Shown here piece by piece: positions 26,509 to 57,525 of a stretch of 64,000 nt of DNA. The DNA comes from Parcubacteria group bacterium (GTDB taxonomy: Bacteria > Patescibacteriota > Minisyncoccia > UBA6257 > Colwellbacteraceae). Where the stretch lies: assembly GCA_041649615.1 (NCBI GenBank), contig JBAZMT010000003.1, forward strand, positions 1,297 to 65,296, in the 5' to 3' direction. How positions within the stretch are numbered: the stretch's first letter is position 1; each line of letters begins with the position of its first letter. A program made the translations under genes and the position numbers. The notes beneath the pieces are model-generated. The model had not been told where the DNA came from, made no database searches, and saw nothing but the letters and a program-made list of their open reading frames with translations.

Positions 26509-27342
26509 ATGTCGCTAGATCATCGAACAATTCGATCGCAGGTGTTCGAGGGCTTCAAGCGCAAGTTCGGGCGCGAGGCTACGTTGCAAGAGGCTCAGTT
26601 CCTTCACGCCGTTGGCATGCTCGAAACGTCGTGCGGCACGGGCTGGAAGGGTGTGGGTGCTGGCTCATTCAACATGGGAGCCATCACGGCGGGTCCAGCG
26701 TGGAAGGGCGCGACGTTCGAGTATCGCGACAGCTACCCGGATGAGAATGGCGTCGACCATTGGTACACGACCAAGTTCCGCAAGTACGCTTCGGCCGTCG
26801 AAGGCTGGGAAGACCTTGCGAACATCATGTACGAAGATCGCCCCACCGTGCTCAAGGCTGCAACCGCGGGCGATGCATATGGGGTCAGCTCGGCTCTCTA
26901 CGAGACCAAGTACTACGCGGGCAGGGGCAAGACCGCCAAGGAGCGCATCGCGGGGCATCACGCGGCCGTGGCTCGTTCGCTGATCACCATCTGCAAAGCA
27001 CTCGGCGAGCCGTTGCCTTCGGGCGAAGAGCTACCGCGCAGAACGCTTCGTCGCGGAGATACCGGCGAAGAGGTCAAGGTGCTTCAGCGTTGGTTCGGGT
27101 TGGTTGTCGACGGCATCTTCGGGCCCGTGCTTGATGAGGCCGTGAAGGACTTCCAAACCGATGCCAAGCTCAAGGCCGATGGCATCGTTGGGAACCTCAC
27201 GTGGGATGCGCTGGAAGCCAAGTTCGAAGCCAAGGATGCCGAAACGTCCGACATCCTTGCCGAGCTAATTGGTAGGGCGGGCGAGTTGCAAACCAGGCTC
27301 GGGGAGTTCATTGCGGCTTCCCAAAAGGTGAAACCCGAGTAG
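26509..27342 (+). CDS. endolysin: GH73 N-acetylglucosaminidase domain + C-terminal PG_binding_1 domain
   Basis: LETSCGTGWKG...SFNMGAI...FRKYASAVEGWEDLANIM matches the GH73/FlgJ pattern (ALESGWG..NN.FGIK..FR.Y.S..ES..D). C-terminal LRRGDTGEEVKVLQRWFGLVVDGIFGPVLDEAVKDFQ matches the peptidoglycan-binding domain. Confidence 0.7.
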   Translation: MSLDHRTIRSQVFEGFKRKFGREATLQEAQFLHAVGMLETSCGTGWKGVGAGSFNMGAITAGPAWKGATFEYRDSYPDENGVDHWYTTKFRKYASAVEGWEDLANIMYEDRPTVLKAATAGDAYGVSSALYETKYYAGRGKTAKERIAGHHAAVARSLITICKALGEPLPSGEELPRRTLRRGDTGEEVKVLQRWFGLVVDGIFGPVLDEAVKDFQTDAKLKADGIVGNLTWDALEAKFEAKDAETSDILAELIGRAGELQTRLGEFIAASQKVKPE

Positions 27343-27498: not shown

Positions 27499-28043
27499 CG
27501 GATTTGGGTGCCCATGCATGGGCGGTTTGCACCCCTACTATCGATCTAAATTGCCAAAACTGCCGATACGAAATCGAGCCAAAAAAGGCTGAAGTACGAA
27601 AAAAGCGACAGGGGGAGTTTCCTGTTTTTGCCCGGCCTGTCCATATGAAGGGGGGTAGGGGGGATGAGACAGAGAAATCACAAGCCAGCGAGAGAGGAGA
27701 AGCAACGAGTTCAGCAAACCATCTCTTCGCTCTGTCCGAAGGACAAGTTGATGAGTGGTTGGTTTGAAGGTTCTTCAGTAGATCAAAGAGAGAAGAGAAA
27801 ACGCGCGAGGCAAAGAACGGCAGGGTAAGCCCTCCGAGGAAGGGTTGGTTTCCCTCCCCCAACCAACCTCTCCCCGGTGAGCGAAAGAACGGTAACCGAT
27901 GGCCTCACCTGCGCAAGGGGTGATAGACTCGTCCCTGAGGCTTCGGCCTCTCCTTGCTGTTCCCAAAGACCCCTCGCTGGCCCCGAAAGGTGTTGGCGAG
28001 GGGTCGACTATTTCGTGGGGTGGGTTCAAGTTTTTGGTCGACC

Positions 28044-28053
28044 TATCCACACT
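28044..28053 (+). promoter_or_regulatory. TATCCACACT motif, copy 1, 12 nt upstream of the helicase gene ATG
   Basis: Shares the 10-mer core with the copies at 43311 and 57516. Confidence 0.4.
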
Positions 28054-28065
28054 TCACGGGGAACC

Positions 28066-29595
28066 ATGGTTCGAGTCATTGTCGACAACCGGCTACGCCT
28101 GCAAGAGAGCGACCTGCCTGATGGCATGGTCGAGTCGTTGCGGAGCGACTTCGAGCATTCGAATCCGAGCTATTACAGGCAACGGCAACGGGTGGTCGCA
28201 TGGGGCCGCAAGCGCGGGCGAAAGATCGATCCCAACACCATCAAGGTCAAGGGCGAGCCGCCAATCATCACCTCTTGGCAGAGCGATGGAATGGGGGGCC
28301 TGTCGTTCCCTCGTGGCGGGACCACAATCGTTCGCCAGGCGTTCGAGCGGTTCGGGCTTGGGGAACCGGACTGGGACGACAGGCGCGTCGCTGGCACGCC
28401 TGCAACGGGGATGCAGCTGGCAGGCTACGAGCATCGGGTCCGGCTCTGGGAGCACCAGGACGAGATCGTGGCCGCGGCCATGGAACGGGAGAATTGTCTA
28501 GTCCGGGCGGAAACGGGTTCGGGCAAGACCACGGCCGCCATTGCACTTGCCGTCAAGGTTGGACTGCCCACCATCATCATCGTGTGGTCGGCAAACCTGT
28601 TCGACCAATGGATGGAGCGGCTCGTGAAGGAGCTCGGCGTTGACCCCGACGAGATTGGGCAGATTCGGGGCAGCCGTCGCACGCTCGGGCCCATCACGAT
28701 GGCGATGCAGCAGACGCTCTATGCCAATCCTCGGTTCACGGAGAAGATCGCGCCTCAGTTCGGGTGCGTCATGGCGGACGAGGTTCAACGCTTCGCGGCC
28801 CGCACGTTCAACGACGTGATCGACAAGTTCCCCGCTCGGTACCGCATCGGGTTCAGTGCGGACGAGCACCGCAAGGACAAGAAAGAGTTCCTCATCTACG
28901 ACGCGTTCGGTTCAGTTGCTGCCGACATTGGGAGAGACGAAGTGGTCAAGCGCAAGTTGGTTTTGGACGTCGAAGTGCGAGTGATCCCCACTGAGTTCCG
29001 TGCCGATTGGTACCGCGAGCAGCAGAAGGAGGAGAGTCCAGACTTCAACCGATTGCTCGAAGAGCTCGTCGAAGACAAGGGCCGCAACCTGACGGCGCTT
29101 TCGGTGGCTCGCACCATGATGAGCCTCGGGCATCAGGTGCTGATGCTGACGCATCGGCGCGAGCATGCCGCGATGTTCGTGCGGTCCGAGCTCGAACGCA
29201 AGACTCGCGCTGGACTGTTACTCGGCGGGCCCGAGAACGAAGCCGAGTTCGCCATGACGGTGAAGGCCATTCGTGCGGGGGAATGCCAGTTCGCCGCGGG
29301 GACGTACCAAGCCATCGGGCAAGGGATGGACGTGCCCTCGGTCTCGAGGGGCGTCGCTTGCACTCCGATCGCTTCGAACAAGCAATTCTTCGGGCAGGTC
29401 AGGGGCAGGCTTTGCCGCAAGTGTGACGGTAAGAAAGACGCCGTGCTCTACTACATCTGGGATCAGCACGTGTTCGGGCTCGAACCGATCATGAACTTGC
29501 GTCGATGGAACCGCGTCGTGATGGTTCAGTACGAAGACGAGTGGCTCACGGCCGACGACTTCATCACCGAGTGGAACAAGCGGAGGAAGGGATGA
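28066..29595 (+). CDS. SF2 DNA helicase (DEAD/DEAH-like, ResIII-type)
   Basis: Walker A AETGSGKTT, DEVQ box, and a C-terminal helicase region QAIGQGMDVPS. ATG 12 nt downstream of a TATCCACACT motif. Confidence 0.7.
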   Translation: MVRVIVDNRLRLQESDLPDGMVESLRSDFEHSNPSYYRQRQRVVAWGRKRGRKIDPNTIKVKGEPPIITSWQSDGMGGLSFPRGGTTIVRQAFERFGLGEPDWDDRRVAGTPATGMQLAGYEHRVRLWEHQDEIVAAAMERENCLVRAETGSGKTTAAIALAVKVGLPTIIIVWSANLFDQWMERLVKELGVDPDEIGQIRGSRRTLGPITMAMQQTLYANPRFTEKIAPQFGCVMADEVQRFAARTFNDVIDKFPARYRIGFSADEHRKDKKEFLIYDAFGSVAADIGRDEVVKRKLVLDVEVRVIPTEFRADWYREQQKEESPDFNRLLEELVEDKGRNLTALSVARTMMSLGHQVLMLTHRREHAAMFVRSELERKTRAGLLLGGPENEAEFAMTVKAIRAGECQFAAGTYQAIGQGMDVPSVSRGVACTPIASNKQFFGQVRGRLCRKCDGKKDAVLYYIWDQHVFGLEPIMNLRRWNRVVMVQYEDEWLTADDFITEWNKRRKG

Positions 29596-33925: not shown

Positions 33926-34582
33926 ATGACCGACCTATCCAACACTAGCGCCAATGCAACGACCACCGAGACCGCCAAAGCCGCCAAGGCCAAGATCGAC
34001 AAGAAGCAAGCCACGGCCGCGCTCAGCAACCTGACGCAGGCGAAGCGGGTCATCGAAGGCAAGGCAGTGACCAAGAAAGCCCAGAAGCGCGAGGCAGTGA
34101 TTGCTCGACGCGAAGAGGAGAAGAAGGCTGCCCTGGTATTGCTCGACACGGGATCGACGAAGAAGTGGTCAGCGCGGTTTGCCCTAGTGCGCGCCGTCAC
34201 CGCGATGAAGATGGGTGCCAGCGCGGAAGAGTTGCGCGGTTGCAAAGCCCTCATGACCGTGACCGATTGGCCCGCGCTGGAACAACCCGTGCGTGACTAC
34301 GCGGTAGCCGTTCAGGCGGATGCGGACAAGATTGCGAGCATCCTTTGCACGAAGCCCGCGGCCCCTGCCCCTGCCCCTGCCCCTACCCCTGCCCCTGCCC
34401 CGGTTGCAGTGGCCCCCAAGGCGGAGCCCAAGCCCGAGCCCAAGGCGGAGTCGGTCAAGCCCCCGACCCCTATTCGCCCGCCCATGACGGCGGTCAAGCC
34501 GCTCGGTACCAAGCCGGCAACGGCTGCTCCCGCGGCAAAGCCTGCCAAGCCCCCCGCAAAGCCGGTCAGTCGCGCCTCCTAA
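33926..34582 (+). CDS. hypothetical protein with (PA)n / KP-rich C-terminus
   Basis: Start placed downstream of the conserved GCGCGCTAGCGCATG promoter-like motif. PAAPAPAPAPTPAPAP low-complexity region. Confidence 0.5.
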   Translation: MTDLSNTSANATTTETAKAAKAKIDKKQATAALSNLTQAKRVIEGKAVTKKAQKREAVIARREEEKKAALVLLDTGSTKKWSARFALVRAVTAMKMGASAEELRGCKALMTVTDWPALEQPVRDYAVAVQADADKIASILCTKPAAPAPAPAPTPAPAPVAVAPKAEPKPEPKAESVKPPTPIRPPMTAVKPLGTKPATAAPAAKPAKPPAKPVSRAS

Positions 34583-34602: not shown

Positions 34603-34639
34603 CCCCGTGGTCTAGCGATGGGCCACGGGGTTCTTCTTG
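34603..34639 (+). terminator. rho-independent terminator-like hairpin (CCCCGTGG ... CCACGGGG + TTCTTCTTG)
   Basis: 8-bp GC-rich stem, 12-nt loop, T-rich tail; downstream of the stop at 34582. Confidence 0.5.
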
Positions 34640-35759: not shown

Positions 35760-35781
35760 CGGCCCCAAGCCCAAGCCTAAA

Positions 35782-35825
35782 ACGGGCCAGCGTGCGACCT
35801 CCGCGCTGGCCCGTTGATGATTTCT
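35782..35825 (+). terminator. rho-independent terminator-like hairpin (ACGGGCCAGCG ... CGCTGGCCCGT + TGATGATTTCTATT)
   Basis: 11-bp perfect stem after the stop at 35759. Confidence 0.55.
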
Positions 35826-37161: not shown

Positions 37162-38500
37162 TCCAATGTTCGACTCGATGTTCAGCTACGATGTTCTTTC
37201 GTTTGACGAAGCCGTTCAACGTCATGGCATGATCCGTGATTGCCTTGCGAAGTTGACGAAGGGGCATACGCCCAATCTACCTAACGACAAGGCGAAGCAG
37301 ATTGTTGGATACCTGCAAGACGCGTGGAACGAATGCATTGGGGCGGGCTCGCCCGACAGTGCAATCGCAGCGGCTCTTCGAGGTATCGTGCCGCTCGACT
37401 ACGTTCCACTTCTCCGCATGCGGAGCGGCATCCCGGCGTCGTACCTGATTGCACGGCTCACGGACGTGCTCATTGACGCTGTTCTGAAGGGCGTAGACAT
37501 CGACGACGACATGCTCTTGCGCGGGCTAGTTGCGGAAGCGTTCAAGGCCTTCGAAGAGCGTCGCAAGAGTGCCGACACGTTGGAGGAAGGGTTCGGCTTC
37601 GATCGGTCTGATGCATGGGCGCAGATGCGCCAAGTGGAAGACCGTCAGGGCGAGGTTTCGCATCTGATGAAGCAGATCGCAAACCTCGCCGGGCGTATGT
37701 ATAAGAGCTTCGAGTACAATGCGATCCCGAGCAAGTGCAAGGACCCGCAAGAAGTCGAAGGTATCGAAACGGGCGGTGACCTCGACAGAATGCTCGACGA
37801 CGAGAAGGCGAGCATCGGTATTGATCCCGACGTTGCCGTTCGAGTTAGCGAAGACCGCGCCAATCAGTTCCGCATGGCAGGCGAGTCAACGAAGAGCCGC
37901 GGCCCGCTCGTAGTTGCAGTTGATGAGTCTGGTTCGATGCACGACCATCGTGAGATCTGGGCCAAGGCCTGCTCAGTGGCGTTGATTCGAGTTGCCCTGC
38001 AAGAGGGGCGAACCGTGCGCATGGTGCACTTCTCGACGGTGACGGATGTTCACGATGTGCGCCCGAACGAGCCGAACGACATGCTCCTCGTCGCCGAAAG
38101 CCATTGCGGTGGAGGCACCGATATCGATGTCGCGATGGAAGTGGCGTTGGAGCAGATCGGAAACCTAGAGAAGGACGGCAAAGAAGGCGCCGACATCGTG
38201 TTCATCACCGACGGCTTGGACAGCTACTCGAAGAGCCACTTCGACAAGATGGTTCAGATGGGCGTTCAGCTTTGGACCGTCGCCATCGACGTGGACATCA
38301 AGGCCGTGTCGGAGCAGCAGAAGCGCAACCGCGGAGCAGCGGGTGCCAGCGGATGGCTCTACGACTACGCTCGGGCGTACGTCCACATCAGCGACTCGAC
38401 TATTCGCGGCAACGGGGCAGGAGCCATCAACGCGGCCCTGCAATTGCGCGAAGCCGCGCTGGACAACGTGACGCGTGAAGAAGAGGCCAGTCGTGGCTGA
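37148..38500 (+). CDS. von Willebrand factor A (VWA) domain protein, partner of the MoxR ATPase (CobT/ViaA-like)
   Basis: C-terminal VWA with MIDAS motif VVAVDESGSM ... TDGLDS. Confidence 0.65.
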   Translation: MGKGDPMFDSMFSYDVLSFDEAVQRHGMIRDCLAKLTKGHTPNLPNDKAKQIVGYLQDAWNECIGAGSPDSAIAAALRGIVPLDYVPLLRMRSGIPASYLIARLTDVLIDAVLKGVDIDDDMLLRGLVAEAFKAFEERRKSADTLEEGFGFDRSDAWAQMRQVEDRQGEVSHLMKQIANLAGRMYKSFEYNAIPSKCKDPQEVEGIETGGDLDRMLDDEKASIGIDPDVAVRVSEDRANQFRMAGESTKSRGPLVVAVDESGSMHDHREIWAKACSVALIRVALQEGRTVRMVHFSTVTDVHDVRPNEPNDMLLVAESHCGGGTDIDVAMEVALEQIGNLEKDGKEGADIVFITDGLDSYSKSHFDKMVQMGVQLWTVAIDVDIKAVSEQQKRNRGAAGASGWLYDYARAYVHISDSTIRGNGAGAINAALQLREAALDNVTREEEASRG

Positions 38501-39317
38501 AGGCCTCATCAGGCAAGGAATTAGGGGACTCAGCGAGGGGTGGACTCTCGCTGAGTTCGAGCAGTATGCCGGCGGAGAAGTCCGCCGGTTGGCGAACAAG
38601 ATGCTTCGTCAGCAACGCTACATCCCTCTCGAGCTTGACGACTTGGTTCAGGTCATCATGTTCACGATCTGGGATCGTTGCATTCACTGGGATGGCCGTG
38701 GCTCAGTCGAGGGCTACGTGATGTTCAAGGTTCGGTGTCAAGTCGTTCGTGAGATGATGTGGGCGAAGGGGCTCGCCCGCGACAGTCACAACCAATGGGT
38801 CGGGGCCGCGTTGATACCGGTGGGCGATGACTTCTCGTTCGAGCCTGAAGTGTTCGAAGGTGTGACACCTGAAGATCTGGCAGATGCCAAACGGAGCGTC
38901 GATGAGTTCGTCGAACTAGCGTGCAAGACTGAGCGTGAAACGGTGCTAGTGATGACGGCCTTGAAGGAAGGAACTCAGCACGGGGCGAAGGTCCTTTACG
39001 AGCAAGAGAACGTCGAAGCGCTCGGGCTAGTCCGGGACATCGAGTGGATTCAAAAGGCAATCACCCGCGCATTGAAGCGGGCGAGGAAAGAATACTATGG
39101 CGACGAAACGTACGATGAAGCCGAAGGTGGAGAAGATCGTAGAGGGTGTGAGGCTGAAGGAAGTCAAGGAGGACATTGCGCGCAAAGCCTACAGACTCGC
39201 GAAGAAGGCTGCGAGCAAGATGTCCCTTCCACCGATGGAGTTACCAGACGAAAGCGGACTCGATCTCGAAGGCGTAGTTCGCAACCTAGTGCTCTGGTAT
39301 CGTGTTGCGACGCCTGA
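38475..39317 (+). CDS. sigma-70 family (ECF-like) sigma factor
   Basis: Region-2-like LDDLVQVIMFTIWDRC...YVMFKVRCQVVREMMW and a region-4-like HTH near the C-terminus. The 3' ~220 nt overlap the next gene out of frame, so the true end is uncertain. Confidence 0.45.
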   Translation: MKKRPVVAEGLIRQGIRGLSEGWTLAEFEQYAGGEVRRLANKMLRQQRYIPLELDDLVQVIMFTIWDRCIHWDGRGSVEGYVMFKVRCQVVREMMWAKGLARDSHNQWVGAALIPVGDDFSFEPEVFEGVTPEDLADAKRSVDEFVELACKTERETVLVMTALKEGTQHGAKVLYEQENVEALGLVRDIEWIQKAITRALKRARKEYYGDETYDEAEGGEDRRGCEAEGSQGGHCAQSLQTREEGCEQDVPSTDGVTRRKRTRSRRRSSQPSALVSCCDA

Positions 39318-40620
39318 ACGAGATCTGTGTGATTGCACGACGTGCGGTGGAGACAGCGATTCGCGTTTGGATGCGTGCCCGTTCTGCGGGGACAGCGAGA
39401 CCGAGGCAGACGCCCCCGAAGAGCTAGCCAAGCCGGCCGCGCCAGAAAAGCCCGTCAAGGCGGAGAAGCCCGCCAAGGCGGAGAAGCCTGCCAAAGAGGA
39501 GAAGCCTGCCAAGCCTGTCAAGGCGGAGAAGCCTGCCAAGTCCGCTAAGGAGGAGAAGCCTGCCAAGGCAGAGAAGGCCGAGCCCAAAGAGGAACCGAAG
39601 CCAACGCCGAAGCCAGAGGCTCCAGCGAGGCGAAAGGTGAAGCCAGCCGTGACGCTCGACCCTCCGCTGGAAACGAATGCCCCGGTCGCATCGAAGGTGA
39701 TTGCGAAGACGGAGGATGGTACCGAGGTCATCGACAAGGATGCAGCCAAGGTCGATTCGCTCGACGACGCGGTTCAGAAGATTGCTGAGCTGAAGAACCG
39801 TTCGGCGAAGGGCATCTGGGACATGGGGGTAGAGATTCAGCGCATCTTCGATCAGAAGCTTTGGCGCTTGCGCGTGACAGAGAAGGGTCATGCAACGTAC
39901 AAGACGTTCGCTCAGTTCTGCAAAGCAGAGCTCGAGATGGGGTACTCGCACGCGAACCGGTTGATGCAGGTAGCGTCAACGTTCCCGAAGGAGATGATGG
40001 AGAGAATTGGGATTTCGAAGTGCTCCATCATGCTGCATTTGCCACCCGAAGCCCGTGCGAAGTTGCTCGAGGGAGCAGAGAACAAGAGCAAGTCGACGCT
40101 CAGCAAAGAAGCACGTGAGCTGAAGGAAGGCGATGCACCGAAGATACCTCGAACGGCTTTGACCGTTGCGATGGCACCCGGTGTCGTCGAGATCCCGATG
40201 ATGGCTCGACCGAAGGACGGTATTCGAAAGAATGGCGAAGTGCCAGCGGTGTCGCTCGATGACGAGCCGGCTTGCATTGAGAAGCTCCCGAACAACGTTC
40301 AGGTGAGGTACATCATCTTGAGAGATCGCGAAGGCAAGTTGTTCCTTCGCATCGATCGCCGTCGAATTGCAGACGGTAGGCTTTTCACGGACGAGCCTGA
40401 AAACCAGGACGCCGAAGAAGAAAGGGACGAGTTGGATATGGACGTGCTCGACGAAGTTGAAGGTGACGAAGAGGATACCGACGAGAACGAAGACGAAGAG
40501 GATACCGACGCCGAAGAAGTCGACGACGAAGACGAGGACGACGACGAAGACGAGGACGACGACGAAGACGAGGACGACGACGAAGACGAGGACGAGGACG
40601 ACGAAGAGGAAGAGAAGTAG
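39097..40620 (+). CDS. DNA-binding protein: Zn-ribbon + (KPAKAEKPAK)n lysine repeats + HTH-like core + ~65-residue poly-Asp/Glu C-terminal tail
   Basis: CDCTTCGG...CPFCGD; AKP/EKP repeats; IAELKNRSAKGIWDMGVEIQRIF core; terminal DEDEDDDEDEDDDEDEDDDEDEDEDDEEEEK encoded by GAC/GAA/GAG codon repeats. Confidence 0.55.
   Translation: MATKRTMKPKVEKIVEGVRLKEVKEDIARKAYRLAKKAASKMSLPPMELPDESGLDLEGVVRNLVLWYRVATPERDLCDCTTCGGDSDSRLDACPFCGDSETEADAPEELAKPAAPEKPVKAEKPAKAEKPAKEEKPAKPVKAEKPAKSAKEEKPAKAEKAEPKEEPKPTPKPEAPARRKVKPAVTLDPPLETNAPVASKVIAKTEDGTEVIDKDAAKVDSLDDAVQKIAELKNRSAKGIWDMGVEIQRIFDQKLWRLRVTEKGHATYKTFAQFCKAELEMGYSHANRLMQVASTFPKEMMERIGISKCSIMLHLPPEARAKLLEGAENKSKSTLSKEARELKEGDAPKIPRTALTVAMAPGVVEIPMMARPKDGIRKNGEVPAVSLDDEPACIEKLPNNVQVRYIILRDREGKLFLRIDRRRIADGRLFTDEPENQDAEEERDELDMDVLDEVEGDEEDTDENEDEEDTDAEEVDDEDEDDDEDEDDDEDEDDDEDEDEDDEEEEK
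40435..40617 (+). repeat. GAC/GAA/GAG codon-repeat tract encoding a poly-Asp/Glu tail
   Basis: gacgacgaagacgaggacgac... spanning about 180 nt. Confidence 0.8.
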
Positions 40621-40623
40621 ATC

Positions 40624-43227
40624 ATGAGGCGTTTAGTAACCAACGGGCAGAAGGAACGTCAGGTGCGGATCGATGCAATTGTCGATCTCCCAAACCAAAC
40701 AACAATCGCACCTGATGTTCCTCCTGTCCGTGGGTTGCTGAACGTCGCTCAGAACAAGGACAACATCATCATCGTTGAGCGCAATGGCGATGAGGTCATT
40801 GTGCGAGAACGGGCCGCTGAATTCTCGTGCTTCATTAGGAACGACATCGACGATGAAACGAAGCGGAAGATTCGAAACCATCGAGCCGTCAAAGGCATGC
40901 TCGAAGAGGGCGATTGGATTCGGATCTTGTGGAAGAGTAGCTTCGAAAGAGAAGATCTCTGCAAGAAGCTCGAAGCGGACGGCGTGCGAACATACGAAGG
41001 AGATGTCGGCGCCGTCCGCCGCTTTTTGACAGATCACAAGATCCCGCACGTTACGCCGAGGCTTTGCTACTACGACATTGAAACGGACAGTCGCGTGCCC
41101 GTGCGGCTTGCAGCCGAAGGCAAAGCTCGAATCCTATGTTGGTCTGTTATCGGTGCTGACGGCAAGGTGACCGTCGGCGTGCTTGATGATGACACTGACA
41201 CGGCCGAACGAGCGTTGCTGCAACGGCTCATCAAGACGCTTGAACAATACGATCAAGTCGCTTCGTGGAACGGGGACAACTTCGACTTCCCCGCAACGAA
41301 GGCGCGATGCGCCCAACGACGCATCTCAGTGAACTTCGACCGATGGCTATGGCTCGACCAGATGGATCTCTTCATCCGGATGAACACCATGGCCGCGGAG
41401 TCCGGAGAAGAGAAGGCGAGCTACTCGTTGCAGGCCATCTCGATGGCATTGCTCGGCGTTGGCAAGGACGACATCGACGCGAGCAGGACCTACGAGTATT
41501 GGGCAGCCGGTGGTGAAGAGCGCCAGAAGCTCGTTCGATACAACGTCACCGACGTGAAGCGACAGCGCGGTATCGAAGAGAAGACGGGCTACATCGCGCT
41601 CCTTCAGACGTTGGCGGAAACGACCAACGTGTTCCCCGACTCGAGGGGCATGAACCCAACGATCCAGGCCGAAGGCTTCTTGCTTCGTCTTGGCGCTGAT
41701 AGGAACTATCGGTTCCCAAGCAACTTCGAACGCGGGCACTCGGACAGGTTCAAGGGCGCCTTCGTGATGGAGCCGCAAGGAAGCGGCATCATCAAGAACG
41801 TTCACGTCGGCGACTTCGCGTCTCTGTACCCGAGCATCATCGTCACGTGGAACATGAGCCCAGAGACGCTGATTGCGGATGAAGCATTGGCGCAAGCGAG
41901 CGCGCTGGACGAACCGTATTGCACGGCCCCAATCACGGGCACGTGCTTCCTAACCAGAGAAGAAGGCATTCTTCCGCACGCCGTCAAAGAGGTGATGCGG
42001 TTGCGGAAGTATTGGAACGATCTGAAGGCGTCGTATCCGCCAGGTTCAGACGAATGGGTGAGCGCGAATCGCAAGGCGACGGCATACAAGATCGCAGCGA
42101 ACTCGTTCTACGGTGTCATCGGTAGCCCGATGAGCCGCTTCTTCAGTCGAGATGTAGCTGAAGCGGTGACGCAGGCAGGAGCATGGCTCATTCAAGAGAC
42201 GATGGCGGCCGCCGAAGCGCGGACGATGCATTCGATCTATGGAGACACCGATTCGCTCTTCATTGGTAACTGTACTCGCACGCAATTTGAGGTCTTCGTC
42301 GAATGGTGCAATCACGACTTCTACCCGGTGAAGCTCAAGGACCTTGGTTGCAAGGAGAATCTGATCAAGCTTGCCTACGAGAAGGAATTCGAACGCATCA
42401 TCTTCATCTCAGCGAAGAAGTATGTTGGGCGCTACGTTCACTTCAAAGGCACGATGGCAGACGCGTCGAGCAAGCCCGAAGTCAAAGGCCTCGAGTACAA
42501 GCGCGGCGACAGCATCAGGGTCGCGCGTAACTTCCAAGCCGAGGTGATCGATCTACTGGTAGGCATGGAGAACGGTGGTCACGAGGACACCGAAACGTTC
42601 GATGAGGTCATTGCACGTTGGCAGGCTTCGATCTTGAACGACCCGTTGACGATAGACGACATCTCGATGGCGAAGCGCTTGAACAAGCCGCTCAACGAGT
42701 ATGCCCGCAAGCGCACGAAGGACGGCGGTTGGGCGAAGCAACTTCCGCACATCGAACTCGCACGCAAGATGATTGAACGCGGTGAGGACGTGCGCGAAGG
42801 CACGAAGGTCACGTACTTCGTCTATGACGCCAGTCACAAGGGTGACGTCGAATACCGGCTCAAGGAAGAGTGGGACGGTACCTTCGATCGGTACGAATGC
42901 TGGGAGAAGCTTACTTGGCCACCGACGCAACGGTTGCTCGAAGCGGCGTTCCCCGGGCACCCTTGGGACGACCAATACGGGTCGGTCCGCCCCAAGACCC
43001 CACGAGCTCCGCGGGCTACCAAGGCCAAGGCCCCACCGAAGGGCGCCTACACCCAAGACATGACGGAGGAGTTTTCCCAGGCTCAGCAGGAGGTCGCCAG
43101 CGGCCTAGGCAAGCGAGGCACGGCCAAGGCCCCACCCGTGCGGGGCTCCGCGCTGGACCCCTCGCCTATGACGACGCCAGCCGGGCCAGGTCGGAGACGC
43201 CGTGTCTCGTCGGCTGCTTCCTCCTGA
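40624..43227 (+). CDS. family B DNA polymerase with 3'-5' proofreading exonuclease
   Basis: Exo I YYDIETD, Exo II WNGDNFDFP, Exo III YNVTDV; PolB motif A DFASLYPSI and motif C YGDTDSLFI. Confidence 0.85.
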   Translation: MRRLVTNGQKERQVRIDAIVDLPNQTTIAPDVPPVRGLLNVAQNKDNIIIVERNGDEVIVRERAAEFSCFIRNDIDDETKRKIRNHRAVKGMLEEGDWIRILWKSSFEREDLCKKLEADGVRTYEGDVGAVRRFLTDHKIPHVTPRLCYYDIETDSRVPVRLAAEGKARILCWSVIGADGKVTVGVLDDDTDTAERALLQRLIKTLEQYDQVASWNGDNFDFPATKARCAQRRISVNFDRWLWLDQMDLFIRMNTMAAESGEEKASYSLQAISMALLGVGKDDIDASRTYEYWAAGGEERQKLVRYNVTDVKRQRGIEEKTGYIALLQTLAETTNVFPDSRGMNPTIQAEGFLLRLGADRNYRFPSNFERGHSDRFKGAFVMEPQGSGIIKNVHVGDFASLYPSIIVTWNMSPETLIADEALAQASALDEPYCTAPITGTCFLTREEGILPHAVKEVMRLRKYWNDLKASYPPGSDEWVSANRKATAYKIAANSFYGVIGSPMSRFFSRDVAEAVTQAGAWLIQETMAAAEARTMHSIYGDTDSLFIGNCTRTQFEVFVEWCNHDFYPVKLKDLGCKENLIKLAYEKEFERIIFISAKKYVGRYVHFKGTMADASSKPEVKGLEYKRGDSIRVARNFQAEVIDLLVGMENGGHEDTETFDEVIARWQASILNDPLTIDDISMAKRLNKPLNEYARKRTKDGGWAKQLPHIELARKMIERGEDVREGTKVTYFVYDASHKGDVEYRLKEEWDGTFDRYECWEKLTWPPTQRLLEAAFPGHPWDDQYGSVRPKTPRAPRATKAKAPPKGAYTQDMTEEFSQAQQEVASGLGKRGTAKAPPVRGSALDPSPMTTPAGPGRRRRVSSAASS

Positions 43228-43300
43228 CCCTTGGGGGATCACCCCCTACGCCCAACGGGTTGACGCCCGGGCAAAAGGTCTGGCTTGGGGTTTCGAGAAA

Positions 43301-43320
43301 TTGGGTGAGATATCCACACT
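43301..43320 (+). promoter_or_regulatory. TTGGGTGAGATATCCACACT conserved promoter-like element, copy 2
   Basis: 20/21 nt identical to the copy at 57506; 19 nt upstream of the ATG at 43340. Confidence 0.5.
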
Positions 43321-43339
43321 GAAGGCAACGGAGACAGGC

Positions 43340-44098
43340 ATGGCAAGCAACACAGAGCGCGCAGACGCGGCAATCAATAGTCTCTTCAGAACAGCGCCGT
43401 CGAACCGTTCAGCGGCGCAGAAGATAGAAGCGGTCGGTGACCAGCGGATTGCAACGATGCGCCGAAAGGCTGAGCAGGTGAAGGAGCTTGCTAATGCCCC
43501 GGCGACGGAGACAGGCAAGGTTGAACGGCGCAAGCCAGTCATGCCAGAGACAACGGAGAAGAAGCGGGTTGCCCGTTCGTTCGATCCTTCAGCCGAGATA
43601 TCGATCGAAGACATGCCCTTACTCCCGCCGTCGTGGATGCGCATCCAGGAACGCGCCTTCAAGTTGGAGGACCCTGAGGCCGAGTTCAACGAATTGGAAG
43701 AAGCCCTAAAGCTCACCGACGCGTTGACGCCGGGCAACCTGCAAGAGGCCTTGAACCGAGCGGAGGACAACGCTCGGCGCGCTCATCGGCTCTACATTGT
43801 CGCTCGTATCGAGTACGAGAAGTTCGAACTCGAGGCCTCGCCAATCATCGAAGCGATGCGGGATGCCGCGAGCAAGGACTTGCAGGGTGAGAAAGATCGC
43901 AAGGAGCGGTCAAAGGCTATTACCGAGGCCGATATCAAAGGCCGGGCCAGCGTGCTCTTCGCCGACGAATGGGCGATTGCCATGGAACGGAAGATCAAGG
44001 CCGAGGGCATGATGGACACCCTGAAGTCGTTCGCGGAGCTTTGGCGGCAACGTTGCTTCTCGTTGAGCTCGATGCTCAACAGTGGTAAGCGTAGCTAG
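43340..44098 (+). CDS. hypothetical coiled-coil protein
   Basis: ATG 19 nt downstream of the TTGGGTGAGATATCCACACT motif; charged helical composition. Confidence 0.5.
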   Translation: MASNTERADAAINSLFRTAPSNRSAAQKIEAVGDQRIATMRRKAEQVKELANAPATETGKVERRKPVMPETTEKKRVARSFDPSAEISIEDMPLLPPSWMRIQERAFKLEDPEAEFNELEEALKLTDALTPGNLQEALNRAEDNARRAHRLYIVARIEYEKFELEASPIIEAMRDAASKDLQGEKDRKERSKAITEADIKGRASVLFADEWAIAMERKIKAEGMMDTLKSFAELWRQRCFSLSSMLNSGKRS

Positions 44099-48188: not shown

Positions 48189-48632
48189 ATGGCACATCAA
48201 GATTTCCATCGTGGTCACGTCAAAGCCGTTGGGGTTTGCCCTCTCTGTGGTGAGATCATCACGCGGACGTACCAAGTCGATATGGAGACGGGTAATGAAC
48301 TGGTCTACGGTATCGGCGGCGTCAGGGGAGTCACGCAAAGGCACGCTCCGACTATTCGAGTCAAGTGGATGTGTGCGGGCGGTTGTGACATCGAAGTCAA
48401 GGGAGCCTATCCAGCCGGGCGTGAGCTTGACTTCTTTGGTTCTAGCGATGAACCGAAAGCGCCAGAACCTGAACCTCTCACCGGTGAGAGCTTGCGCGAG
48501 CTTTCACCAATGGCTGAGCGAGCAAAGCATGCCTTAGATGAACTCGGGGAAGGAATTGACCATGGTACTAAGGGTGAAAGACGGAACGACGTTGAGCCCG
48601 GGCGACCTAGTGGCTCTGAACGAGAACGGTGA
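48189..48632 (+). CDS. hypothetical Cys-containing protein
   Basis: CPLCGE...CAGGC; the 3' end overlaps the next gene. Confidence 0.35.
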   Translation: MAHQDFHRGHVKAVGVCPLCGEIITRTYQVDMETGNELVYGIGGVRGVTQRHAPTIRVKWMCAGGCDIEVKGAYPAGRELDFFGSSDEPKAPEPEPLTGESLRELSPMAERAKHALDELGEGIDHGTKGERRNDVEPGRPSGSERER

Positions 48633-57403: not shown

Positions 57404-57454
57404 AGACCGCTCTGGCACGTTGCAGATCGAGACCCCCAACCTGCCCCCCTTGCG

Positions 57455-57512
57455 ATTGGTCGCCCCAAAAAAGCGACCAGAGGGCAGGGAGGGGGTTTCG
57501 CTTTTTTGGGGG
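57455..57512. terminator. large A6/T6-containing inverted repeat CCCCAAAAAAGCG ... CGCTTTTTTGGGG (13-bp arms, ~23-nt spacer); bidirectional terminator-like or protein-binding site
   Basis: Arms at 57463-57475 and 57499-57511. An alternative small hairpin GGTCGC/GCGACC sits at 57458-57478. Lies directly upstream of promoter-like motif copy 3. Confidence 0.4.
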
Positions 57513-57525
57513 AGATATCCACACT
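57506..57525 (+). promoter_or_regulatory. TTGGGGGAGATATCCACACT conserved promoter-like element, copy 3
   Basis: Immediately downstream of the large hairpin at 57463-57511; 40 nt upstream of the ATG at 57566. Confidence 0.5.

Follow-up and report, generated by a model that had tools for sequence, protein, structure and literature searches.

The 64,000-nt stretch analyzed here (positions 1,297 to 65,296 of contig JBAZMT010000003.1, referred to below as the window) carries a repeated element, built around the 10-nt sequence TATCCACACT, that lies in intergenic gaps at the heads of blocks of co-directional genes and that is very probably a phage-specific promoter. The source is a 66.7-kb metagenomic contig assigned to a "Parcubacteria group bacterium" metagenome-assembled genome (protein MFA5052795.1). 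Near-identical contigs are present in samples that include JGI 3300037067, ENA ERZ27247363, and the Logan runs SRR22988830 and SRR26548587. The GC content of the window is 57.5%, and every sizeable gene is on the plus strand. Genes for tail sheath, tape-measure, and baseplate proteins occupy positions 1 to 27.3 kb, the last of this series being an endolysin gene (26509-27342). From 28 kb onward, the order is SF2 helicase, DnaB, primase, MoxR, VWA, a sigma-like protein, and a family-B DNA polymerase (PolB), followed past PolB by RecA, an Mre11-like phosphoesterase, a Rad50-like protein, a ParB-like protein, a radical-SAM protein, a PDDEXK nuclease, and, after the nuclease, a Thy1/ThyX-like gene (a faint Pfam match); at the contig end lies a gene that, reading by eye, we take to be dCMP-deaminase-like. 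The contig is that of an uncultured contractile-tailed phage and is probably an incomplete phage genome, the genomes of relatives reaching 88-95 kb. It is clearly a fragment of a tailed-phage genome, and the label of the bin is not to be taken as that of the host. No tRNA genes were found in the window. The sites and the genes behind them are as follows, with -16- standing for a 16-nt spacer and scores given for a position weight matrix (PWM).

27616..27647 (+): S0, a degenerate fourth copy, AGTTTC-16-TGTCCATATG, then GAAGGGGGGTAGGGGGG; 32 bits (site in the training set)
28022..28053 (+): S3, GGGTTC-16-TATCCACACT, 12 nt from the ATG of the SF2 helicase; 44.5 bits
28066..29595 (+): SF2 DNA helicase, first gene behind S3; block runs to 43227 (DnaB, primase, MoxR, VWA, sigma, PolB)
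43289..43320 (+): S1, GGTTTC-16-TATCCACACT; -35-like box at 43289-43294, -10 region at 43311-43320; 43 bits
43340..44098 (+): first gene behind S1, function unassigned; block runs to 57403 (RecA, Mre11-like, Rad50-like, ParB-like, radical-SAM, PDDEXK)
57494..57525 (+): S2, GGTTTC-16-TATCCACACT, behind the PDDEXK nuclease gene; 43.8 bits
57566..58210 (+): first gene behind S2, function unassigned; block heads towards the Thy1/ThyX-like gene

An initial sequence-only reading had described near-identical 20-nt copies at 43301-43320 (TTGGGTGAGATATCCACACT) and 57506-57525 (TTGGGGGAGATATCCACACT), together with a core-only copy at 28043-28053 (CTATCCACACT). All three are present, and only the degree of identity between the two long copies needed correction: they agree at 19 of 20 positions rather than 20 of 21, and at 28 of 34 when extended upstream. 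TATCCACACT itself occurs as exactly three exact copies (starts at 28044, 43311, and 57516), all on the coding strand and all intergenic. The distances to the first ATG of each block, put at 12-40 nt in that reading, indeed measure 12 nt (ATG at 28066, inside a long reading frame), 19 nt (43340), and 40 nt (57566). The genes ahead of the elements are endolysin at S3, PolB at S1, where the gap is 112 nt, and at S2 the PDDEXK nuclease, which had been mistaken for a resolvase; those behind them function in replication, recombination, and nucleotide metabolism and are not structural.

The three copies of TATCCACACT compare with 0.03 expected from 300 dinucleotide shuffles, and allowing up to one mismatch on both strands of the window retrieved no additional match. 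Recurrence of a 10-mer was nevertheless rejected as evidence by itself, because 803 different 10-mers are present at least three times on the plus strand, a consequence of composition and codon bias. What sets the element apart is its placement: intergenic DNA makes up 4.6% of the window, and just two of the 803 recurrent 10-mers, TATCCACACT and CGCTCACCGG, are wholly intergenic. No further copy is found in the 1.4 kb past the window, and a scan of IMG/VR with the 14-mer GAGATATCCACACT gave only scattered single chance matches.

Alignment of the sites placed the reported 20-mer at the downstream end of a longer, bipartite element of 32 nt with the form rGkTTC, 16 nt, TATCCACAyT. All three paralogs, and likewise the orthologous sites on five related contigs, have the hexamer exactly 16 nt upstream of the 10-mer. 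The spacer has a fixed length and a largely unconstrained sequence that includes a T-rich/TTGG patch: identities amount to 58 of 64 in the two boxes and 32 of 64 in the spacer (Fisher p=6e-7, the comparisons being partly non-independent). In the related contig L128, the spacing of hexamer and box is unchanged despite an adjoining 1-nt deletion. This contig also bears on the coding status of the S1 region, which is non-coding because L128 carries indels of -1 and +6 there; a long open reading frame (ORF) at 43202-44098 that covers S1 was rejected on account of these out-of-frame indels. The fourth copy, S0, emerged when the 720 nt of non-coding DNA ahead of the helicase gene were aligned with their ortholog in L134, and no conserved ORF lies downstream of it. 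When both strands were scanned with the PWM, only S0, S1, S2, and S3 scored above 14 bits, all of them intergenic. The sites are asymmetric and non-palindromic and share one orientation, co-directional with the genes. Directly downstream of S0 is the sequence GGGGGGTAGGGGGG (27650-27663), which is kept in L134, in L142, and in L135, where the motif before it is that lineage's own. Candidate roles are the 5' end of a transcript, a G-quadruplex-like element, and the ribosome-binding site of a tiny ORF.

The element had been described as unlike a sigma-70 -35/-10 pair. This holds for its sequence, which is non-canonical, but not for its geometry, which is of the -35/-10 type with a -35-like hexamer, a 16-nt spacer, and a 10-nt -10/discriminator box. 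With a canonical promoter defined as TTGACA-17-TATAAT matched at 9 or more of 12 positions, including A2 and T6 of the -10 hexamer, none is found at the sites and none in the whole of 27.3-45 kb, where shuffles would predict 3.8 +/- 1.6. Nor do the eight aligned sites, read directly, show AAC in the -35 or CGT in the -10 element, the signatures of extracytoplasmic function (ECF) promoters.

Several hairpins and a second type of promoter-like box accompany the sites.

27921..27929 (+): TGATAGACT, a host-type extended -10-like box with TAGACT, about 100 nt upstream of S3
27970..28015 (+): terminator-like hairpin CCCCTCGCTGG...TTGGCGAGGGG (27970-28003) with a T-rich tail, directly upstream of S3; z=-3.1; compensatory pairs
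43233..43272 (+): two small hairpins (GGGGGATCACCCCC; GCCC...GGGC) behind the PolB stop; not significant, z=0.3
57428..57507 (+): large GC-rich hairpin (57428-57500) followed by CTTTTTT, terminator-like, ending within S2; z=-2.7

The suggestion that each copy follows a hairpin or terminator thus stands for S2 and S3, where the structures are strong, but fails for S1, which has only small, non-significant ones. S3, S2, and S0 each have a terminator-like hairpin ahead of them or overlapping them, S1 does not, and the TATCCACACT box is never within a hairpin; at S2, the hairpin at 57428-57507 reaches with its 3' arm and T-run into the -35-like box and T-rich spacer. An intrinsic terminator as the shared feature was rejected, S1 being without a hairpin and T-run, as was a common RNA structure of the element, S1 folding no better than shuffles. 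Rfam returned no family match in the window. As a separate observation, about 50 nt behind the PolB stop (43228-43275, CCCTTGGGGGATCACCCCCTACGCCCAACGGGTTGACGCC) are kept in all six genomes compared and are more conserved than the promoter spacer. Further strong terminator-like hairpins lie inside the unit headed by S3, at 34603-34630 and 35781-35815, and show that four promoters do not describe the full block structure.

Related genomes of graded distance were found by searches with PolB and the helicase, and their contigs were then compared; two of the handles used here, L135 and L136, denote one contig of 38.8 kb. Among deposited phages, there was no blastn match to 42-46 kb and the closest PolB is less than 30% identical, leaving no close cultured phage; relatives in IMG/VR share PolB identity of only 44-45% and have no comparable element, and a metagenome scan with the helicase as the query yielded two short contigs only. 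At 83-96% protein identity, both boxes are retained at S1 and S3: the S1 orthologs in L130, L131, and L128 keep the element, and the S3 orthologs in L132 and L134 keep both boxes with a diverged spacer. The S0 ortholog in L134 reads GGTTTC-16-TGTCCACATT. Farther out, the sites persist in position with altered sequences, TGTyyCTATG being the box of one genome. In L142 (helicase 70% identical), S3 is GGTTTC-16-TGTCCCTATG and S0 is GGTTTC-16-TGTTGCTATG; in L129 (PolB 71% identical), S1 is GGGTAC-16-TGTCCATAAG. The contig L135/L136 (helicase 58%, PolB 66%) bears rTGCAC-15-TGGCATGTATG three times, at the places orthologous to S0, S3, and S1, its S0-orthologous site (L135:9594) thus having that lineage's own motif. 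In L135/L136 and L142, the box pairs change in concert, and copies within a genome are therefore more alike than are orthologous copies of different genomes.

Lying between S0 and S3, a TAGACT box and the sequence following it are invariant in L134, L142, and L135, lineages across which the S-element changes. This is what would be expected if the TAGACT box were recognized by a factor that does not vary, presumably one of the host, and the S-element by a lineage-specific one. A relative without the MoxR, VWA, and sigma genes (L137/L138, about 30 kb retrieved) has TATAAT/TAGAAT-type boxes and no long invariant element, and no sigma homolog was found in the part retrieved.

The window also encodes a candidate for such a lineage-specific factor.

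38475..39317 (+): candidate cognate factor, a sigma-70-family protein with two helical domains within residues 1-215 (38475-39119)

The match of this ORF to Pfam Sigma70_r2 is weak (E=8e-4), and its membership in the sigma family is established through its relatives. A profile search of 1.84 billion representatives retrieved only nine members of the family, five of which exceed the curated Pfam cut-off for Sigma70_r2; TIGR02937 is matched by four of four assembled homologs, and three homologs were independently labelled sigma-24 family by the Joint Genome Institute. A 13-sequence profile compared with PDB recovered sigma factors only (sigma-H, 2e-4; SigK, 4e-4). A first AlphaFold model from a shallow alignment was discarded as poor (predicted local distance difference test score [pLDDT] 48), its fold search not being significant. 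With a diverse alignment, AlphaFold (AF2) gave two confident helical domains (pLDDT 82.5), the second spanning residues 130-210, and the top 50 Foldseek matches in PDB were all sigma factors, with alignments that span both domains at E-values of 3e-3 and higher. Judged from these comparisons, the protein is a real sigma-70-family member with a region 2. No member of the family was found in IMG/VR, and the contig of its remote member P0251 was too short for comparison. The C-terminal 65 residues of the sigma ORF overlap the next ORF (39097-40620) by about 220 nt (39097-39317) in another frame, and the arginine/serine-rich tail is present in homologs of 274-281 aa and not in family members of about 200 aa.

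The fate of the motif can be set beside that of this protein. Sigma identity is 79% in L128, where the motif is kept, and 45-47% in L129 and 31% in L136, where it has changed; the corresponding PolB identities are 86%, 71%, and 66%, and the sigma factor therefore diverges faster than PolB. Across four lineages, the promoter sequence covaries with the sigma factor, qualitatively, and the sigma-less lineage is without the element.

We consider it very likely that the S-elements are promoters, and we lean, on balance, toward the sigma factor at 38475-39317 as the protein that reads them. The proposal of the sequence-only reading, namely, a promoter of non-sigma-70 consensus recognized by a phage sigma factor or activator and defining transcripts of an early or middle class, has drawn support from all of the computational tests run: the absence of canonical promoters, the genuine sigma clade, the concerted change, and the gene content. 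Initiation at the sites, the role of this sigma factor, and the timing of the transcripts we infer as follows. Host core RNA polymerase carrying the phage sigma-70-family protein would start transcription at the S-elements, with sigma region 2 contacting TATCCACAyT and the C-terminal domain contacting rGkTTC; by analogy, the start would lie about 3-9 nt downstream of the box. S3 would serve the helicase-to-PolB unit, the sigma gene included; S1, the unit with RecA through the PDDEXK nuclease; S2, the unit towards the Thy1/ThyX-like gene; and S0, a G-rich leader or non-coding region. With the sigma gene located within the S3 unit, host-type read-through would supply its first transcripts, e.g., starting at TGATAGACT (27921) and passing the hairpin at 27970-28003; the sigma factor would then boost its own expression and that of the other units by positive feedback.

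A number of points weigh against this proposal. The sigma gene is downstream of S3 and behind the two strong hairpins internal to its unit. The boxes match no characterized sigma specificity, the ECF-type AAC and CGT included. In the protein, a sequence profile of the C-terminal domain gave only spurious matches in PDB, and region 4 is suggested only by full-length fold alignments, whose E-values are weak. No S2 orthologs were retrieved, the protein downstream of S2 having no relative in IMG/VR. The link between sigma factor and motif draws on few lineages and on partial coverage of the sigma-less genome, and the concerted change could reflect different hosts.

The last point leads to the most substantial of the competing explanations, that the S-elements are promoters read by a host sigma factor, either one with an unusual primary consensus or an alternative or ECF one, possibly together with a phage activator, the phage sigma factor serving another class such as late genes. 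A promoter-like architecture does not tell which sigma factor reads it, a gene within the S3-headed unit is awkward for a purely self-dependent factor, and apart from the TGnTAGAnT boxes no second motif class can be assigned to the phage sigma factor. We regard this as a minority possibility that deserves to be taken seriously: the motif differs radically among phages with 58-71% helicase or PolB identity, the TAGACT box stays invariant in those same genomes as expected of a host-read signal, and the sigma-less relative has ordinary -10 boxes. Recognition by a polymerase of the phage's own, single-subunit or non-canonical multisubunit and encoded outside the sequenced 65.4 kb, would suit an invariant box of 10-11 nt, longer than the usual -10 element, on a contig that is probably incomplete, with relatives of greater length. 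We give it very little credence, as neither an RNA polymerase gene nor a DxDGD motif is present in the 65.4 kb or in the retrieved parts of the relatives (the 1116-aa ORF has only a faint pectate-lyase-like match), conservation is bipartite rather than one continuous block, and a sigma gene is at hand. The elements might alternatively be binding sites of a phage DNA-binding regulator or recombination sequences at module boundaries, and not initiation sites at all; they are lineage-specific, intergenic, and repeated, and the window encodes ParB-like and other unassigned proteins. This too is improbable, given an asymmetric two-box layout with a strict spacer that is typical of sigma recognition, the single co-directional orientation behind terminators and ahead of start codons, and the existence of a better operator candidate in the palindrome CTCACCGGTGAG. 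A signal acting in RNA, be it a processing site, a leader structure, or a translation-associated sequence, is barely credible: the start codons are close by, but their distance varies, S0 has no conserved ORF downstream, there is neither a common fold nor an Rfam match, and the upstream hexamer would fall in or before the terminator.

A resemblance that the sequence-only reading had left unmentioned has to be weighed in the same way. The core of S1-S3, (A/C)TATCCACA, matches the DnaA box TTATCCACA at 8 of 9 positions, these three being the only matches in the window with at most one mismatch, and the genes downstream are replication genes. The sequence TTGTCCACA is an actinobacterial variant of the DnaA box, and the S0 ortholog in L134, CTGTCCACA, is 8/9 to it. 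The sites might therefore bind DnaA as replication-origin elements or DnaA-controlled promoters. We find this very hard to accept, since the three matches compare with 5.4 expected, the boxes are single and 14-15 kb apart, neither a DnaA-box cluster nor a skew inflection is seen, the likeness is gone at S0 (TGTCCATATG) and in the orthologs TGTCCCTATG, TGTTGCTATG, TGTCCATAAG, and TGGCATGTATG, and the conserved hexamer at exactly 16 nt would go unexplained. A compound version, in which the -10 box, besides being recognized by the phage sigma factor, is at the same time a host DnaA box, such that host DnaA gates or is titrated by the replication and recombination operons, is a speculation to which we assign only a slim chance; if true, it would couple phage middle-gene expression to the replication-initiation state of the host.

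Phage sigma factors with private promoters have well-studied precedents, which make recognition of the S-elements by the phage's own sigma factor the easier to conceive. ECF (group 4) sigma factors are two-domain proteins of strong specificity and frequent autoregulation whose promoters are of the GGAAC-N16-17-CGT type. The system described here is like these in the two-domain sigma factor and the spacing of about 16 nt and unlike them in lacking the AAC/CGT signatures, in its 10-nt -10 box, and in having no recognized anti-sigma gene. In Bacillus phage SPO1, a cascade of the sigma factors gp28 and gp33/34 acts on bipartite phage-specific promoters, with gp28 driving the middle (replication) genes; sequences and host are other than here, where no cascade is evident. 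In contrast to typical DnaA boxes, S1-S3 are single and dispersed, the match does not persist in orthologs, and an upstream hexamer goes with each of them.

The closest parallel is phage 7-11, in which the late promoters of the sigma factor gp47 have the consensus GTAAtg-(16)-aCTA (Lavysh et al. 2022, PMC8948821). The gp47 gene lies inside the cluster that it controls, and a start by read-through followed by positive feedback has been proposed (PMC8948821). Both systems have a bipartite consensus with a 16-nt spacer, read in 7-11 by host core polymerase with a phage sigma-70-family protein, few copies that each head a gene block, and a sigma gene inside the controlled cluster. They differ in that the boxes are unrelated, that the genes concerned are those of replication and recombination here and late genes there, and that the sigma factor found here belongs to a separate, very small clade (9 of 1.84 billion representatives). 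The present phage furthermore has a contractile-tailed virion, to judge from its tail-sheath and baseplate genes, and encodes PolB. Phages 7-11 and phiEco32 share promoter positions and not sequences (PMC8948821), the same relationship as that seen among the relatives compared here. In phiEco32, the middle and late promoters dependent on gp36, which is without region 4, consist of the single element tAATGTAtA (PMC8948821). The phiEco32 sigma factor redirects the host polymerase to a phage-specific non-sigma-70 motif, a likeness to the S-elements; unlike that single element, they have a second box conserved at a fixed distance.

Several other features of the window merit record. On the plus strand, the extended -10-like motif TGnTAGAnT has three matches (8991, 14746, and 27921), all intergenic and two of them in the structural module, and similar TAGAGT/TAGAAT boxes occur in the sigma-less relative; these may be host-type promoters. 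Between S0 and S3 lies a candidate small RNA gene (27921-28015), composed of the TGATAGACT box, a C(UUCG)G hairpin (27937-27950), the invariant single-stranded CUCUCCUUGCUGUUCC (27948-27963), and the terminator hairpin at 27970-28003 with its U-rich tail. It is kept in L134, L142, and the distant L135, shows three compensatory base pairs, and has no Rfam match. The 12-bp perfect palindrome CTCACCGGTGAG has three exact and two one-mismatch copies (27426, 27487, 27870, 34586, and 48477), four of the five intergenic and the exact copy at 48477 near the end of the ORF at 48211-48537; it is kept in L134, and with up to two mismatches it has 12 matches against 4 expected. It is likely to be the operator of a dimeric regulator or a short hairpin.

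The commonest 8-mer, CGCGCTGG, is strongly strand-skewed, with 31 copies on the plus and 4 on the minus strand, as is CCGCGCTGGA (16 versus 1); the copies are spread over the whole window at an average of roughly one per 2 kb and mostly in one codon phase, and could amount to a Chi-like or other polar signal or to a codon artefact. A list of recurrent k-mers also brought out in-frame tandem repeats in coding regions (2419-2548, 34361-34392, 39455-39560, and 40521-40600), which include 60-nt units present three times, CCCCTG repeats, 18-nt repeats of the Lys/Pro/Ala type, and acidic GACGAAGACGAGGACGAC repeats. In the relatives (P0003, P0005 [L128:3192-6461], P0134, P0159, and P0162), some PolB homologs are longer by about 220-250 aa (1089-1114 aa), and some helicase homologs carry the Pfam domains PF14890 (intein) and PF13392 (HNH endonuclease), a sign that inteins may have inserted into replication genes of the clade. 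Lastly, a search of genome contigs with the radical-SAM protein as the query led to L140, which was set aside as a differently organized phage of 65% GC without an S2 site.

The strategy of a phage sigma factor with a private promoter is already known and is here met in a new phage group; current concepts remain unchanged, since such factors are well documented. If the proposed reading of the S-elements is true, it would map transcription in an uncultured clade of contractile-tailed phages that encode PolB and have no cultured relative. It would also provide a natural series of diverging sigma/promoter pairs, with at least three specificities at 58-86% identity of the replication proteins, that could be put to use as orthogonal expression parts and studied as an example of sigma-promoter coevolution across a genome.

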